Positions 31,510-63,403 of a stretch of 64,000 nt of DNA are shown here, one piece after another. The notes beneath the pieces are model-generated. The model was not told the origin of the DNA, searched no databases, and saw only the letters and a list, made by a program, of their open reading frames with translations. Each line of letters opens with the position of its first letter. The first letter of the stretch is position 1. The DNA lies in sequence record PQ850593.1, one strand, 5' to 3'. A program made the position numbers and the translations under genes. This DNA comes from Escherichia phage AidaStucki_Bas93.

Positions 31510-32860
31510 AGATAAACGTTTTAGCGTTGTCACGAGTAGGAAGACCAGCAAGTTTCTGGTTGTGGGAGTGGATATCACCTTCAAGAAGGATATCACGATA
31601 CATAATAGCAGAAGCTAAACCACGTTCTGCCAGAGCTTTCTTAGCTGGATTATTCTCTTCGATTGCTTCAGCAAGCATATCCCTACACTCTTTAATGAGG
31701 TAGTGAGCGAGCATACGAAGTTCAAGTCCAGAACCATCATACCCTAAGAATACTTCTTTACCAGCGGGTATGTAATATTTGTAAGCACCTACAGGCTTAT
31801 CTTTCTTCCCCGGCTTACCTTTCTCGTAAATTACGTTAGTACCTTTTCGTATATAACAACCATCAGGAACAACGTTAGTAATAACGAAAGGACGAGAGTG
31901 ATCACTGTCTGAATTATAGTCAGACTCAAACAAACTGCGACACTCATGACCAAACAAACCACGAGAGGGAATATTAACCACGATACGATGTTTGAATCGA
32001 AAAGTTGGCGTAGCGCAGCTGTTAGCTTCTGCCGAAAGTTTACCATCTTCGCGTTCCTTTGCTATGAGTCCACTGATAAGACCTAGCCTGTGAGCCGCTA
32101 CAACGCGCCTCTTAAGCAAACTTCCAACACTCCCTAGCTCGCCCCCTAACCCTTCTTCAAGAGTCTCCTCGAGGTTTGTAGGAGCTGTAGGCCACTTGTT
32201 TGAGGTAGCTAGTGCTATCTTAATCTCATCAAACGTGATAGGTCTACGTCGGTTAGGGTTTAAACCTAAACCAAACACATAAGCCTTCATATAGTTCTTA
32301 GTCTTAAACCTAAAATGCTTCTCTAAGAACCTCCTAATATCTGCGTCAACCATCTCGGCTGTCTGCTTCTGTTTAGCATTACCTCGCATCCAAGCTGAAT
32401 ACCACGCTTGGTATGTTCCATACTTTCGTATATCTTTCTTGATTTCAAAAGTATTCCAAGGTTTCTTTGATACGTTAAACTCTGGAGGAAGAAAACCCTC
32501 ATCCATAAGGGCTTCTTTAACTCGTGCATCTTTCGATGGGTCAAAGTCCACGTATTCAACACAGGTGAATGCTCCACCAATGTCTTCTCTCTTAAGGCCA
32601 ACTCTATCACAATAGGCTTGAGGCCACTTCTGTAAAGCTCCAGACTTCTTAAATGGCTTCATATAAGTAGAGCCATCTAATCTCATCTTAGGTAAGAGAG
32701 GGATCAGTTCTTTGTCGATATTAACAATAATCTCTTTAAGGAGGTGAACATACCACCGAGCATTTCTTCGGTTGAAACTCACTCCGTGCTTCGCTTGCTT
32801 AGAGATTATATCAGCGACAGTCATCTCTGTCAAAAATGGGAGAGCGTCCGGGTTGCTCAC
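31510..32860 (-). CDS. DNA polymerase (family A, T7-like), 5' exon with motif A
   Basis: Motif A LGYDGSGLELRMLAHY and pre-motif-B LEGDIHSHNQKLAGLPTRDNAKTFI; ends at TGA immediately after KTFI. Confidence 0.75.
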
Positions 32861-54604: not shown

Positions 54605-54708
54605 AAGAGCTTCTAGCGAGGATGACAGGGTTCGAACCTGCATACTCCAATTACTTCTTTAACGACCGCTTAGAAGGCGGGGAAGATACATCCTCGCTAG
54701 AAGCTCTT
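54605..54708. repeat. 20-bp perfect inverted repeat enclosing a 64-bp structured core
   Basis: AAGAGCTTCTAGCGAGGATG (54605-54624) is the exact reverse complement of 54689-54708; the core holds two short hairpins including the palindromic GGTTCGAACC. Confidence 0.6.
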
Positions 54709-57554: not shown

Positions 57555-58378
57555 TATCTTATTCCTTTCAGTGATAAGTTATATCGGGCAAGCCCATCAA
57601 GGCGATAGGCTTGAACAAATAACTCAACCAAGTAAACCAAATGATTTCCAACTACGCAGTAAGATCGTACCATCATCCATAGTTACGCATAATTTTAGTA
57701 GTCGCTTACTGGTACTGCTCACCGTTGTGATTCGTCCGGTTGTGCATTTACCTTTATTGCTATAAAGATATATAACACGATGGCCTAACAAGCGGGAAGG
57801 AGCTTTCTTAAATTCTGAGATGTTAGTGATCATTATCCATATACCTTAACATGATTGATTCGACGTGAATGATGATAAGAAGACTCAACAGCCATTGCCT
57901 TTAATTCTTCTTTTCGTTGGTTAGTGTGTACAATATCCCAATGATTATGATCGTGTTGGCGCTGTAATATCTTACTACATTTGCGATGGTTTCCCGTGCT
58001 GCGACGTTTCTCACAAATAGGACACTTGCCAAAATTATTACTGAATATCATTTTCTCAATCCTAACTTTCTTAAGACACGGCCTAACGTTGTTTCTTGGG
58101 TGATAGTATACCTGACCGCTTCACGTTCCAACGTTTCAATCTTCATTGGCGACGGATACCATTCACCGGTAAGCATACACCTATACTCAACGCCATACTT
58201 TTTAGATAGGCGGTAATGTTGACCGTTGACAAGATTCCTATAAATCGTGGTATGCGTCGTTAACATAATCGTCACCTTTGATTAGATTCTTTGATTAGTA
58301 CACTGAATCAATGCACTGATAAAAGAAAAGGCGCTACCCGTTAAAGATAGCGCCTTATGTTTATTTAGATTGTCTTAC

Positions 58379-59287
58379 TTATGCCGCCTGACGTGCCGCC
58401 ATAATTTCAGCCGCTTTGCGCAATACTTCTTCTTCTTCTGCTTTCGCCGCTTGTTCGGTACGGGTAGCAACCGTTGAAGAGATACGACCGCGCAGATTAT
58501 CTAACTTCTCTTGCATAGCTGCGATGGTCTTTTCCATTTCATCAGCGTATGAGTCCAGTGATTCTAGTTCCTTGCTCGATGCGTTCATCAGATAATCATC
58601 CGAGATCGCTACCGTCGAGGCCGTGACTTTCTTGATCAGTGAGTCAAAGGATTTTTTAACCTTCCCTACTTCTTCACTTAAGGCAATAGTGTTATCACTG
58701 GTAGCGCCGTTGCGCTCGTCAGCCAGCAATTTAGCTTCAATACGGATTGCATTCAAGCGGTCAACTAAAGCGTAAATATCCTGATTAAAATCTTCCTTGT
58801 TTTTCGCCGGGATTTGCAGGTGTGCCGCCACGTTGTCATTGCAACCTTTATAGAAGTTAGGATTATCTACTTCAATTGCACGACCTAACGCAAAGTTTTC
58901 GAAAGCATTTGACCAGCGAGCGCGGTTTTGTTCCATTTTGGCCTTAATTTGCGCTTCTTTCGCATCTTCTTTCGCTTTCGCTTCACCTTCCAGATTAATC
59001 CATTTTTTACGACCGTTTGCCGCACCAGTATTAAACTTGATTGGAGTTAAGAAAGTAATTGCAGTGGCAATAACATCCATATCGCGGAAACGTTCAGTTA
59101 ACAGAAAATCGACCGCCGCTTGCAATACATCTAACTTTTTACCGTTGCTGCGAAAGTGCTGCAAATGCCCTAAAAGGAAGTTAGAAACATCTTGTTTAAT
59201 CGCCGCGTTATTATTGCGGATGTTGTTTGCCAGCGCGTTAAAACCGGATTCTTTTACCAGATTAAAAACTTTAGCCATGATATTCAC
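58379..59287 (-). CDS. hypothetical coiled-coil protein, compositionally atypical (CpG-rich codons)
   Basis: 302-aa ORF; GCG/CGN-rich codon usage unlike the rest of the window. Confidence 0.5.
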   Translation of the reverse strand: MNIMAKVFNLVKESGFNALANNIRNNNAAIKQDVSNFLLGHLQHFRSNGKKLDVLQAAVDFLLTERFRDMDVIATAITFLTPIKFNTGAANGRKKWINLEGEAKAKEDAKEAQIKAKMEQNRARWSNAFENFALGRAIEVDNPNFYKGCNDNVAAHLQIPAKNKEDFNQDIYALVDRLNAIRIEAKLLADERNGATSDNTIALSEEVGKVKKSFDSLIKKVTASTVAISDDYLMNASSKELESLDSYADEMEKTIAAMQEKLDNLRGRISSTVATRTEQAAKAEEEEVLRKAAEIMAARQAA

Positions 59288-61230
59288 CTTTCAATTATAA
59301 GGGCACTATTGCCCCGCTCGCTATGAGCTTTTAAGCCACTATTGACTTAACTATAAACGCTCACTATAAACGCTTATAGGTAAGCGGAGCGGTCTTATCA
59401 GGAGTTAACCTTGCCGCTCCCTTATCCGTGATGTTTCATCTGGTATCTTTAATTAGTCGCTATAAATAAAGCCGACTTGATAGCGATGATCAATCATCAC
59501 AATAAGGCCAGTGTGTCCGACTCAATTTAATTACATTACTGTAACCGTCGGCAATATCGTTTACTCTGCTTTCGCTCCCGCCTATCCTTTTGTATCAGCT
59601 CTTTATCGCTAGTCATCGCCCACTACGGGATACTATTGCGAAAAAGTCACTAACCGCCTAATATTCCGGCGTTTTATATCTTTCGGCAAGTTTACTACAC
59701 AACACGACTATGTACTTTCATCATAAGACGAATATCAAGCCGCTCACGTCGTAAACGTTCACACTAAAACCTTATTGTTAAATAGCAATTTGCCACTTTT
59801 TAACCATTTTCCGCCGCCCGCGATTGGGCGTTAATTCGTCGGGATTGTCTACCCTGATCAACTTCATTCATTGTAGCGCCTTTTTAGCAAGGCCGCCGCT
59901 ACCCATTAACCGTGGGCGATTAGTTTTAGCCTTTGCGTGCACTCAATGATTCCGCTTATCAGTGGGGACTTTTCCAGTAAGGGATCGTAAAACCGTTTTC
60001 CCTGATATTCTAGGGAGTTTTACGCCGTTTTATCTGGTATGCTTTCCGATGGTTATTATCATCCAGCATATTTAACCGATATATGAAAATGTTTAAATTA
60101 TTAAAGAGCGGTAAATCTATCGGACGTGTTTTCTCACGTCATGCAACTGTTAGCCGTTGTGTCGCTTTTTCACTGAAGCGGTGATTTGCTTAGTGACTTG
60201 TGCTCATTATGAATCATTTTGCTTCCGCCGTCAATCACTTTTTTAATCTTTTTTCATCGTTCCCGCTGTTGGGAAGATATATCAATCAGCTGTATTTGAT
60301 TGAAGATCAAGCGATCAGGCTTGAACTTATGATTCATATTTTTAAAGAGCGGTTTTTCTGACTTGTGACCAGTATGAACTTACTTTCTCACGTTGTCAAT
60401 CTCTTTTTTATCATCTTTTTTCATTCTCTTCCCTTATCTCGCGTGCAACTATGCGAAAGGGCAAGATGATAAGTCTGATTTGTCTTTTTGGAATCTAGTA
60501 CGCTTTCAAGCATCAATCTTTTGAAAGTATCGAACAAATAAGGCTTATTGATATTGCTTATTGTCCGCCCGCTTCACGTATGAATCAGGAATCAATTCTA
60601 CCGATCAACTAAGCGCCTTGTAGTAATGACGTCACCGCCACCTAAAAGACAAATCATATTTTTAAAGAGCTGGATTTTTCACGTCATCGCTGACTTGTGC
60701 TCATTATGATTCAGGCTTTTTCCGGTGTCAAATACTTTTTCAAGTATTTTTTCACTTTCTAGCCTGATTTTTAAAGAGCGTTTAAAATTGTATGGCTCCC
60801 ATAACACCATTTGATGACCAGTTAACCTACGATCATTTAGGACTATAGTACCCGCTTAGCTGCGTCTGACTTGCTTCACTCACTAGGGAGTTACTTGAGC
60901 GGTCATCTTGTCTTTCTAAGCTCATTATAGGTTAGGCTTTTCAGTTGTCAAATACTTTTTCAAGTATTTTTTCACTTTCTAGCCTACTTTTTAAAGAGCG
61001 GGGCAATTTCTTGCCTTGTATGTTTTTCATCGTACCCGATGGAAATGAGTATACGCGAGCCTTCAGAAAGTGCAATAGGGATAAGCAAATTATTTTAAAT
61101 TTTTCACTGTAGGGAAGATAGAAGGGCGGGCTAACGTGGTACACCATAGAAAACGGCTTGTAAAGCGATAAGAAACGGCCTTAAACGCGCTACAGCGAGC
61201 TAAAAGGGAGTAAGGAATACAATCCCCTTA
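59288..61230. repeat. ORF-free region with degenerate direct repeats (candidate origin / terminus / promoter array)
   Basis: About 2 kb with no ORF of 60 aa or more; TTTAAAGAGCGG-type motif five times (60101, 60341, 60661, 60771, 60991); a 55-bp unit with palindrome AATACTT-TTTC-AAGTATT repeated exactly at 60726-60780 and 60945-61000. Confidence 0.55.
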
Positions 61231-61259
61231 GAAAAGAAAAAGCGCCTTTATTGGCGCTT
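61231..61259 (-). terminator. rho-independent terminator
   Basis: On the minus strand: AAGCGCC-AATAAA-GGCGCTT followed by TTTTTCTTTTC. Confidence 0.45.
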
Positions 61260-61280
61260 ATAGGGATGATTTAAAGTTTT

Positions 61281-61532
61281 TCACCATTTAGGCAAATCTG
61301 CATCAAGCAGGCCAGCAAGTGACAATTCACCGTCAACATATATCGATCTGAAATCATCTCGATTGATATCGATGCGCACCATTTGCAGCCATTTTTTGGC
61401 CTCATTAAAGCTCATTGAGCAAAAGGCAACCGTGGGCAATATTACGTCACCATTTTGCAAGCTGAACGCTATAAAAGTATCACACACACAACACGAAAGA
61501 CCGTTCGACAATTTAATCACTTTGATACTCAT
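61281..61532 (-). CDS. hypothetical protein
   Basis: 83-aa ORF. Confidence 0.35.
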   Translation of the reverse strand: MSIKVIKLSNGLSCCVCDTFIAFSLQNGDVILPTVAFCSMSFNEAKKWLQMVRIDINRDDFRSIYVDGELSLAGLLDADLPKW

Positions 61533-62392
61533 GTTTTTACACTCCCAAAGATAGGTTATTTATTTGCTGAATTTAGCGCCATAAAACTTACTAATCTTGT
61601 TTTTCGGGCTTAACTTGCTATCAGTGAGCGCTTCAATCACTTCACAAACGATCAGAACAAGTAAAGGAAAGACTACAGCCAGAAACATCATTACCAGAAC
61701 TATCATTTCTATTACTCCAATCAATCAATCAAGAGCCTTCACTTTACTATTGCCTATAAAGGAAAGCAAGTACCACGGGAACAAACAACCGCATAACAGA
61801 CCACGGGAAAACATCGCCAGATAATGCGGTGATATTATTCCACTTAAATAATTAGTTGACTCAAACATCAAACGTTAAAAGAAAAGAATAACAGAACGCT
61901 GAAAAAGAAAAGAATAAAAAGAATATAATAAACATCAAACATAATCTTTCCACTTAATTAATGCATATATCATTATTGCACTCATAATTATCACCATTGA
62001 AACTATTTACACTCAAACTATGGGGAGCTGCGACTGTTACATGACGGTACGACGCGATCGCTGATCGCCTTAAACTATCGGTACAGTGAAAGATCCATAC
62101 AATGGCTAGCCTTTCCCATACTCTTTTAAGGGGCACTAAATAAACGGGTATTAAATGAATAGGATGTTATACACGGGGCAATAACTGCACGGGATAGGGC
62201 ACGGGAAAAGTGGAACGTTGAAAAAGAAGGTAAAGGCATTGCCAATACCCATTTTTTAAATGAGGACTCCCCCTTTTTAACAATTCGTCGCGGAGCGCCT
62301 AGCCCCACTCGGTCAAATCAGAATTTTAAACCCTTATATATAAGCATATGCCCCAACTTTATGTTGTGGATTTAAGCTTGAGGAACTATTTA

Positions 62393-62557
62393 ATGAATCT
62401 AATTAAAGTGTTTAGACGGATGAAATGTAAACACGATTACTATCTTCTTCGTAAAGCTTACGGGGATGAAAGAATACACGGTCTCTATCTATCAACATGG
62501 AAATGTAGGGAATGTGGTAAGTTAAAGTTTAGTGAATGGATAGACAGACCGGGATGA
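62393..62557 (+). CDS. small zinc-finger-like protein
   Basis: ATG at 62393 after GAGGAActattta; CKHD...CRECG pairs; track ORF starts further upstream at 62348. Confidence 0.35.
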   Translation: MNLIKVFRRMKCKHDYYLLRKAYGDERIHGLYLSTWKCRECGKLKFSEWIDRPG

Positions 62558-62564
62558 TAGTGCC

Positions 62565-62710
62565 TTAACGTGACATAGCCTTTATGAAGTCCCCTTTATG
62601 ACATGCCCTTTACTTCAGCGTACACGGGTTGTTAGTATGAGGGTAGTCATCAGAGATGACATGGCCTTTACGGGTAGGTCTTATGATGTGCCCTTTATAC
62701 TTCAGAGACA
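62565..62710 (+). repeat. four degenerate direct repeats TGACAT(R)GCCTTTA upstream of a plus-strand gene
   Basis: Copies at about 62571, 62599, 62657 and 62684 (last variant TGATGTGCCCTTTA). Confidence 0.5.
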
Positions 62711-62746
62711 GCTACTACGTAGCGTCGTATTCAGAGGAGAAGAATT

Positions 62747-62968
62747 ATGAATTTAGTATTAGACTTTTTATCAGAGGTTGTGCCTCGCTTTCGTACGGAG
62801 ACTTGTGCCTTCGTTAAAATATCCCCTGAAGAATTAGAATGCATTGGTCGTCTGGTTGACTTGGATGACGATGAAGAATTTGATGCAACGATGGAAGTTA
62901 GTAGCCTAGGATGGTTATTCTTCCGAGCGTTCACCACTATCAAACCACACACTTATAAGGAATACTAA
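62747..62968 (+). CDS. hypothetical acidic protein
   Basis: 73 aa; SD GAGGAGAAGAAtt before the ATG. Confidence 0.45.
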   Translation: MNLVLDFLSEVVPRFRTETCAFVKISPEELECIGRLVDLDDDEEFDATMEVSSLGWLFFRAFTTIKPHTYKEY

Positions 62969-62971
62969 TTT

Positions 62972-63403
62972 ATGTTAGATTGTAAATATCAAGGAGATGA
63001 TATGTTAGATTTAATCCACACTACTCGCCCTAATTCTAAAACTAAAACACAACCATCTACTCTGGAAGTAATTGAATACGAATCTACTAAACATGATCAC
63101 CTCCCTGACTATGCTCGTGCAATGATTGAGATGATTGAAGAAGCTGAATATGAAATGCTCCATGATTACATCACCTCCAAAGATGAATGGCATCGTGATG
63201 TTCGAATCGAAGAAGATGGTACAGAAATAATTACGTGGGTTCACAAGAGTGAGTTAGTAGACGACGCACTGCGAGACTACGAAAAATTTTTGGTCGACGG
63301 CTCTATTCTTTTAGAGGAAGAGAAGGGTGTAGAACTTCCGTGGGAGGGTGAGACAGTTGCTTTAGGTAAGATGTTTAACCTGTCCGTTGGTGATTGTAAG
63401 TAA
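62972..63403 (+). CDS. hypothetical acidic protein
   Basis: 143 aa; alternative start at 63002 has the stronger SD (AAGGAGAtgat). Confidence 0.5.
   Translation: MLDCKYQGDDMLDLIHTTRPNSKTKTQPSTLEVIEYESTKHDHLPDYARAMIEMIEEAEYEMLHDYITSKDEWHRDVRIEEDGTEIITWVHKSELVDDALRDYEKFLVDGSILLEEEKGVELPWEGETVALGKMFNLSVGDCK

Follow-up and report, generated by a model that had tools for sequence, protein, structure and literature searches.

Genomic setting of the ORF-free region

The genome of Escherichia phage AidaStucki_Bas93 (sequence record PQ850593.1), of which a stretch of 64,000 nucleotides was analyzed here (hereafter, the window), contains at positions 59288-61230 a ~1.9-kb region that is essentially free of open reading frames (ORFs). 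A first-pass annotation had noted repeats and a high CpG content in this region and had proposed that it is a replication origin with iterons, a terminus or packaging region, or a cluster of early promoters. A megablast search with 59288-61260 returned ~95 phage records, with Escherichia phage ManiMatter_Bas94 as the best match (94.7%), followed by MN05, ECBP2, NJ01, SU10, phiEco32, and others. These matches belong to Gordonclarkvirinae/Kuravirus (i.e., phiEco32-like podophages with elongated heads) and to the sister genera Suseptimavirus and Nieuwekanaalvirus, and the window is that of a phiEco32-like (Kuravirus) coliphage. An N4-like phage with hairpin promoters for a virion RNA polymerase (RNAP), a first guess from the phage names, was dropped on this taxonomy. 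The homolog of the region in the phiEco32 reference genome is a 1,944-bp gap that separates phi32_124 from phi32_125 and carries no annotation; it sits 2.8-4.8 kb inside the right genome end. The region also lacks annotation in most of the ~95 related records. Since the genes flanking the gap on both sides lie on the minus strand, the region was read on that strand.

No minus-strand ORF of at least 30 aa occurs in 59288-60420. One 68-aa ATG ORF is present at 60941..61147 (minus strand), and the earlier statement that no ORF reaches 60 aa is therefore not literally true. However, this ORF is disrupted by a frameshift and stops in the closest relatives (95-97% nucleotide identity) and has no Pfam or PHROG match, so we regard it as spurious and the region as non-coding in practice; the hypothesis that the region is coding was rejected accordingly. 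ARAGORN also found nothing in the region. The right border is formed by an intrinsic terminator that closes a small early operon upstream (Table 1); a terminator had been noted here before, and it sits on the minus strand. The enrichment in CpG reported for the first ~800 bp was borne out, with an observed/expected (o/e) ratio of 1.46 for 59288-60100 versus a window mean of 0.71 (standard deviation, 0.22), which is rank 6 of 632 windows.

On its left side, the region leads into the first gene of the leftward operon, a phi32_124 homolog. Its start had been placed at a GTG at 59287, whereas the true start is the ATG at 59278, with a Shine-Dalgarno (SD) sequence ahead of it. This gene (58379-59278, minus strand) has a CpG o/e of 1.42 and is thus as CpG rich as the sequence upstream of it. 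The 299-aa protein has no PDB sequence match, and a fold search with its AlphaFold2 model (pLDDT 77.6) returned generic helical matches only; neither the database nor the fold searches gave a functional clue. Metagenomic homologs of the protein share 69-71% and 46-53% identity with it, and ten divergent metagenomic loci were taken for comparison, alongside 25 close phage sequences.

Table 1. Features of the ORF-free region and its borders, listed in the direction of transcription (TSS, transcription start site)
Feature	Position	Strand	Sequence and remarks
Intrinsic terminator	61230..61259	-	Stem 61259..61240, 7 bp with 5 GC pairs, then T run; tail TTTCTTTTCT
boxA-like copy 1	60988..61000	-	CGCTCTTTAAAAA; inside 63-nt repeat D2, upstream of P4
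P4	60924..60951	-	TTGACA-16-TATAAT, 12/12; inferred TSS ~60917
boxA-like copy 2	60768..60780	-	CGCTCTTTAAAAA; in second D2 copy
P3	60703..60731	-	TTGACA-17-CATAAT, 11/12; UP-like tract; inferred TSS ~60696
boxA-like copy 3	60659..60671	-	AGCTCTTTAAAAA; ~+25 from inferred P3 start
P2	60371..60399	-	TTGACA-17-CATACT, 10/12; inferred TSS ~60364
boxA-like copy 4	60339..60351	-	CGCTCTTTAAAAA; ~+13 from inferred P2 start
P1	60206..60234	-	TTGACG-17-CATAAT, 10/12; inferred TSS ~60199
Structured non-coding RNA (leader), ~860 nt	59300..60159	-	226 consensus pairs, 40 helices
Hairpin	60122..60140	-	Covarying, directly 5' of copy 5; position as boxB in rrn leaders
boxA copy 5 and spacer	60094..60110	-	CGCTCTTTAATAATTTA; conserved in all 35 sequences; unpaired in consensus fold
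SD, ATG 59278, and 299-aa first operon gene	58379..59293	-	SD AAAGGTGA; phi32_124 homolog, phrog_13018

The right half carries four tandem promoters

The right half of the region (~61000-60200) contains four sites, P1-P4, that are the best sigma70 matches within a scanned 5-kb stretch (58000-63000). All four point leftward and coincide with the repeat units. Across both strands of the whole window, only 14 sites match the consensus at 10 or more of 12 positions, and P1-P4 are 4 of these, lying within 850 bp. The 45 nt upstream of each -35 element are 64-76% A/T with A-runs, versus a window average of ~58%; the highest value belongs to P4, whose UP-like tract contains an 8-bp palindrome. In addition, a strong sigma70-like site occurs at the position of P1 in 24 of the 25 close sequences and in 7 of the 10 divergent loci.

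Such an array is already known in kind from phiEco32 and SU10. In phiEco32, transcription of the early class is carried out by the host sigma70 holoenzyme, and the SU10 paper reports three sigma70 promoters in the homologous spacer "like phage phiEco32," listing ttgaca...cataat promoters "between CDS120 and CDS121" in its Table S2 (Mirzaei 2014, PMC4281155); these were assigned by analogy to the phiEco32 experiments (Pavlova 2012, as cited there). The locus is the same by homology, yet four strong promoters are found in the window and three are listed for SU10. Furthermore, boxA, antitermination, and RNA structure are not mentioned for the spacer in the phiEco32/SU10 literature that we examined. 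The early-promoter proposal is thus right for the right half of the region, where the four leftward sites match at 10-12 of 12 positions.

The repeats in this half correspond to the promoter units. The degenerate units described earlier are recovered as D1 (three copies of 61 nt, 70-77% identity) and D2 (two copies of 63 nt, 94% identity), and the element previously written as GACTTGTGCTCATTATGA is a -10 region plus the initial transcribed sequence, read backwards. What had been given as an exact 55-bp repeat contains 2 mismatches, and its longest exact run is 40 nt (60726-60765 = 60946-60985). Likewise, the palindrome has a stem of 8 bp (AAATACTT-GAAA-AAGTATTT) rather than 7; it is present in two units only, where it overlaps the UP region.

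Among the close relatives (L001-L025), the promoter/boxA array differs by unit-sized insertions and deletions. Each relative has 2-4 strong promoters, the spacer ranges from 1.76 to >2.3 kb, and the block from P2 downward is kept in all, a pattern that suggests recombination between the repeated units. Near-perfect sigma70 matches were also seen elsewhere in the window, at 32833 (minus strand; TTGACA-17-TATAAT, 12/12) and 20433 (minus strand; TTGACA-16-TAAAAT, 11/12). The former may be the counterpart of the SU10 middle-region sigma70 promoter, either upstream of CDS68 or serving the sigma-factor gene.

The layout resembles that of the T7 A1-A2-A3 promoters, where several very strong promoters for the host RNAP also form a cluster that precedes the early genes and is near the genome end that presumably enters first. 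In contrast, T7 has a short leader that contains an RNase III site and is not known to include a boxA array or a large conserved fold.

An rrn-type boxA array alternates with the promoters

The first-pass annotation had reported at least five copies of TTTAAAGAGCGG-like motifs. On the transcript, this motif reads (C/U)GCUCUUUAA(A/C)AA and takes the forms CGCUCUUUAAAAA (three copies), AGCUCUUUAAAAA, and CGCUCUUUAAUAAUUUA. Its core, GCTCTTTAA (the reverse complement of the TTAAAGAGC given earlier), occurs five times in the 64-kb window. All five occurrences fall in the region and on the minus strand, compared with 0.82 expected, and none of 100 shuffles reached five. With the preceding base included, the five copies fit (C/A)GCTCTTTAA, i.e., the sequence of boxA.

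NusB-NusE binds to boxA, which thereby nucleates the Nus complex both in rRNA operons and at lambda nut sites; the reference sequences are UGCUCUUUA for the rrn boxA, followed by the spacer ACAAUUUA, and CGCUCUUA for the lambda boxA (PMC2724277). Copy 5 together with its spacer matches the Escherichia coli rrn boxA-spacer UGCUCUUUAACAAUUUA (ugcucuuuaacaauuua) at 15 of 17 positions in the window, at 16 of 17 in many relatives, and at all 17 in the metagenomic relatives L048 and L056. The motif is therefore an rrn-type boxA with the rrn spacer.

Each copy is on the minus strand, the sense strand here, and has a promoter ahead of it; the distances from the inferred TSSs are +13, +25, +89, and +137. 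A weak sigma70-like site at 61048-61075 (minus strand; TTGCAC-16-TATACT, 8/12), between the terminator and copy 1, would supply copy 1 with a promoter of its own; in relatives, TTGACA-16-TAATAT is found at about this place. The 25 close sequences and the 10 divergent loci show the same alternating order of promoters and boxA copies, with the final boxA located 816-936 nt upstream of the first gene. Every predicted transcript therefore has at least one boxA, and the last copy is common to all. Together, the sequence identity, position, and strand of the copies suggest that they recruit NusB-NusE(S10), along with NusA, NusG, and SuhB.

The surroundings of copy 5 are also like those of an rrn boxA. 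Directly 5' of it, at the place of boxB, lies a hairpin (helix 2) with three covarying pairs among the close sequences (AU21/GC4; GC18/AU6; UA16/CG6/GC2/AU1), and L048, the one divergent member inspected, has a hairpin of different sequence at the same place. The core of copy 5 (alignment columns ~144-156) is unpaired between helices 2 and 3 of the covariation-supported fold described below, and the spacer after it leads into helix 3, on the 5' strand (columns 168-178). The sole predicted pairing of the core is with the -10 region and shows no covariation. A GAAA-loop hairpin follows copies 1 and 2, whereas copies 3-5 lack one.

A sixth, near-boxA sequence, TGCTATTTAACAA, with one mismatch to the rrn boxA, was observed inside the structured RNA at 59775-59787 (minus strand). 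It sits in a highly invariant block (GCAAATTGCTATTTAA, identical in all 25 close sequences), its 5' part lying in a hairpin and its 3' part in a long-range helix with CCTTATTGT at ~59507-59499. The rrn 16S-23S spacer carries a second boxA, which this sequence recalls. As a design example of a mutated boxA, we name the change of GCTCTTTAA to GCTAGGTAA.

Among known boxA systems, one comparison is with the antitermination leader of E. coli rrn operons (boxB hairpin, boxA, and boxC; NusB/E/A/G, SuhB, and S4). The region reproduces the boxA core and spacer at 15-17 of 17 positions, the hairpin just 5' of boxA, the strong tandem promoters with UP-like tracts ahead, and, after boxA, a long RNA that is untranslated and highly structured, with long-range helices closing it. 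It differs in belonging to a virulent phage, in carrying boxA five times, and in that its RNA is unrelated to rRNA (no Rfam match) and continues into mRNA. With lambda nutL/nutR, it shares a boxA near a strong early promoter of a phage early transcript, as well as the first base, C. However, the core is of the rrn type (CUUUA) and not of the lambda type (CUUA), no conserved GAAAA-pentaloop boxB follows boxA (no search for an N-like protein was made), and the phage is virulent and not lambdoid. A third parallel is provided by the boxA sequences of CRISPR arrays and suhB, which also lie outside rRNA operons and lambda and guard or regulate long untranslated transcripts with respect to Rho (Stringer 2020, PMC7665894; Baniulyte 2017). 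Those are single chromosomal sites, whereas here a phage array of five is followed by a large folded RNA.

The CpG-rich left half encodes a large structured RNA

The 823 bp adjoining the gene are found at full length (~816-857 bp) and 74-96% identity in 97 phage records. We aligned the leader from 25 phages (alignment A1; mean column identity, 85%) and derived a consensus fold with RNAalifold, which yielded 239 pairs, 76 of them with compensatory double substitutions. Two helices that involve untranscribed promoter DNA were removed from this fold, which gave the consensus in Table 1. Several large domains are closed by long-range helices, namely 60097-60087/59809-59799, 59969-59939/59879-59847, and 59778-59751/59564-59499.

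The fold stands out against phylogenetic and register controls. Overall, 99.3% of cells are paired, versus 93.4% in shuffles and 35-47% in slid registers, and the 76 pairs changed on both sides compare with 35.7±3.3 in shuffles (0/500 reaching this number) and 8-11 in slid registers. Double-change cells number 382 versus 12-29 in slid registers, and the covariation score is 0.251 versus 0.03-0.06. The fold is also strand specific: in the transcribed sense, 570 cells are G·U and 41 do not pair, and since the G·U cells turn into non-pairs on the opposite strand, 595 non-pairs are counted there. In addition, the single-sequence minimum free energy has a z-score of -5.8.

This structure extends beyond the close group. 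Where the divergent loci include enough upstream sequence, a largely gene-free stretch of 1.4-3 kb with a boxA-containing control region lies upstream of the gene, and the A1 profile found a leader of 870-936 nt in all four divergent loci searched. When the structure of the close group was projected onto the ten divergent sequences, which had not been used to derive it, through a plain sequence alignment (A2; 57% identity), 64% of cells were kept versus 36-43% in slid registers. In A2, little is lost from the central and 3' helices, which are rich in compensatory changes (96/100 paired with 48 compensatory cells, 67/70 with 24, and 60/69 with 34). Moreover, two divergent clades folded separately gave 230-260 pairs each, with 90-93% paired (slid, 35-40%) and 100-110 double-change pairs (slid, 16-28). 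Collectively, the left half is a large structured RNA that is conserved by compensatory changes in three clades.

Some features of the divergent loci (L046-L057) are noted in their own right. The gene-free stretch reaches up to ~3 kb where enough upstream sequence is available. In 6 of the 10 loci, it is bordered by opposite-strand genes, without a small upstream operon, and in those six the promoter/boxA/RNA region abuts the divergence point, which probably corresponds to the genome ends.

The RNA was found in virulent coliphages and related metagenomic contigs. No Rfam 15 covariance model matches it, including those for GOLLD, ROOL, group I and II introns, RNase P, and 6S: neither the region nor the 10 related loci gave a match at the gathering score, and at E≤10 only chance-level matches to snoRNA and small RNA models were obtained (E 3.6-10). 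No similarity was detected in 5,426 E. coli genomes. Scans with a degenerate 20-mer gave 8 true members among 47 metagenome matches, all 8 being Kuravirus-like contigs, and none among 32 matches in bacterial genomes; a scan of IMG/VR with an invariant 16-mer gave 13 extra contigs, all of which were chance matches by profile search. Apart from this RNA, a borderline Rfam tRNA match was seen at 54617-54695 (minus strand; 29.7 bits, with the gathering score at 29). It is not among the tRNAs called by ARAGORN and may be a divergent or degenerate phage tRNA.

GOLLD and ROOL are RNAs of ~580-800 nt with complex folds and unknown function that are often associated with phages or prophages (Weinberg 2009, 2017). 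With ~860 nt, the phage RNA is in the same size class, being longer than ROOL (581 nt) and within the range of GOLLD and group II introns. Unlike these RNAs, it matches no Rfam model at E≤10, does not lie beside tRNAs, is confined to virulent coliphages (absent from the E. coli genomes and the bacterial genome set), and has a defined position as an early-operon leader behind boxA. ROOL and GOLLD have recently been reported to form homo-oligomeric cages.

A probable immediate-early control region and leader

Given these features, we consider it probable (roughly 65%) that the gap is the immediate-early control region of the leftward early operon together with that operon's long untranslated leader. 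Host sigma70 RNAP would start at the four tandem near-consensus promoters right after DNA entry. The nascent, single-stranded boxA beside its hairpin would then load NusB-NusE and the other Nus factors, and the modified complex would cross ~0.9 kb of untranslated RNA without Rho termination. The Nus complex may also assist the co-transcriptional formation of the long-range helices, as has been proposed for rRNA. Finally, transcription would run, with no terminator intervening, into the SD/ATG of the first early gene and the early operon. The initiation step and the final passage into the operon rest on the sequence together with the published work on phiEco32 and SU10, whereas Nus loading, resistance to Rho, and a function of the RNA are what we infer. 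Resistance of the untranslated stretch to Rho is postulated by analogy with rRNA operons and with CRISPR arrays; in the latter, boxA guards untranslated transcripts from Rho termination (Stringer 2020, PMC7665894). Our working view is that a functional RNA would be produced very abundantly within the first minutes of infection, either to be processed into a stable trans-acting RNA or to act in cis as the leader of the early mRNA.

Several observations weigh against this interpretation. Recent work indicates that rRNA escapes Rho without Nus factors, that the main contribution of these factors is to rRNA folding, and that at suhB they can even favor termination by Rho; because of these findings, the effect of boxA could be on folding or regulation rather than antitermination. 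A further difference from rrn leaders is that no boxC-like element is seen: the boxC consensus UGUGUGGG is GU rich, and nothing like it occurs in the sequence after the boxA-spacer (AAACATTYTCCTATATCGG). The 5' domain of the RNA aligns poorly between clades because of insertions. With no terminator or obvious processing site to set a distinct 3' terminus, the RNA may be nothing more than a 5' untranslated region (UTR). Lastly, the sister phage 7-11 has a comparable ORF-free leader with no canonical boxA on the transcribed strand. In this Salmonella phage (L137/L138; NC_015938, 88864-89916 joined to 1-129), the ~1.2-kb leader spans the interval from a validated early promoter to gene 151.

It is a substantial possibility that this RNA represents a new functional class. 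In its fullest form, which we put forward only tentatively and regard as somewhat doubtful, this proposal holds that the region specifies an ornate, very large (~0.86-0.94 kb) functional RNA of a new class that is made in bulk early in infection by a borrowed, rRNA-operon-like expression system and acts in its own right. Tandem UP-element promoters, the boxB-like hairpin, and boxA would recruit Nus as both antiterminator and RNA-folding chaperone, and the RNA might serve as a ribonucleoprotein (RNP) scaffold with the 299-aa protein, as a ribozyme, or as a decoy for a host factor or defence system. The 299-aa gene and the RNA may form one module, or even an RNP.

Alternative explanations

The strongest rival, which we nevertheless find unlikely as a complete account, is that the structured RNA is a purely cis-acting 5' UTR that stabilizes the mRNA against RNases, shields it from Rho, or controls translation of the 299-aa gene. 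Indeed, no terminator separates the RNA from the SD/ATG, the RNA and the phrog_13018 gene each occur in 97 phage records and are adjacent in 10 of 10 metagenomic loci, and both are CpG rich. However, an RNA of ~860 nt that has 40 helices, some of them long range, and single-stranded blocks that do not vary far exceeds what known leaders need, and the RNA core is kept even where the protein is only 47-52% identical.

A replication origin, either with iterons and an initiator or primed by transcription with the structured transcript as pre-primer, is improbable. Direct repeats are present, and the placement of strong promoters beside a long structured untranslated RNA does resemble pre-primer layouts such as those of ColE1 RNA II and the T7 primary origin, and we know of no mapped origin in phiEco32-like phages. 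Against this, the motifs are spaced irregularly (109-320 bp), Tandem Repeats Finder (TRF) detects only trivial 2-copy A/T repeats and no tandem array, and the region has neither a DnaA box nor an AT-rich unwinding element of any prominence (GC, 0.375-0.42). The motif is identical to boxA, which works as RNA, and the repeats are fully explained as promoters; nothing points to a transcription-primed origin either.

It is quite improbable that the boxA copies are decoys that titrate NusB/NusE/SuhB from host rRNA operons during host shut-off. Five copies per transcript, an rrn-identical boxA-spacer, and very strong promoters would suit such a role, yet one boxA per promoter is equally expected for loading in cis, and the number of copies varies between relatives.

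The notion that the GCTCTTTAA motifs are DNA operators for a phage or host regulator, with a coincidental likeness to boxA, draws on their interleaving with promoters and on the two copies at about -72 to -85 of P3 and P4. We consider it highly improbable, as a match of 15-17 of 17 positions that reaches into the rrn spacer is very unlikely to arise by chance, all copies are on the transcribed strand downstream of a promoter, the motif is not palindromic, and the final copy, beside a covarying RNA hairpin, is 89 nt past the last promoter.

A genome terminus, terminal repeat, or packaging site, suggested by the ORF-free, repeat-rich sequence near the divergence point of gene clusters, is refuted by a homolog of the 193-bp phiEco32 terminal repeat (identical at both genome ends) at 62108-62279 (84.5% over 172 nt), ~0.9 kb outside the region, in keeping with the interior position of the gap in phiEco32. 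The physical genome end probably lies inside the window, between the divergent gene clusters, so that the window would be a joined-ends representation.

The observations of the first-pass annotation were thus largely right, and its interpretation is partly supported, namely on clustered early promoters; it did not include the strand, the identity of the motif as boxA, or the recognition of the CpG-rich 800 bp as a large structured RNA.

Significance for phiEco32-like phages

phiEco32 is a model for phage control of host RNAP, exerted via its gp36 sigma factor and gp79, and its largest non-coding region has so far stayed without annotation; ~100 GenBank records have spurious small ORFs or no annotation at this place. 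A search of the literature available to us returned no report that links phiEco32 with boxA, antitermination, or non-coding RNA. Of value here are the rrn-type boxA array in a virulent phage and the large, strongly covarying, previously undescribed and unclassified RNA in three clades. Large structured RNAs are rare and are often associated with unusual biochemistry. Since these phages are easily grown, genetically tractable, and present in therapy collections such as BASEL, the function of the RNA is directly testable. RNA-seq data of E. coli NC101 sampled 10 min after phage infection already exist (BioProject PRJNA1225266), from a study with the Kuraviruses RSB02 and RSB04 in which only the host served as mapping reference. 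The strong promoters and the boxA modules could also be used as they are in phage engineering.

The boxA/Nus reading would explain how ~0.9 kb of untranslated RNA escapes Rho, and the array offers a specific candidate for the antitermination strategy, so far undefined, that earlier discussions have raised for phiEco32-like phages. More broadly, with an rrn-type boxA array in a phage that is virulent and not lambdoid, Nus antitermination and RNA chaperoning would reach a new setting.

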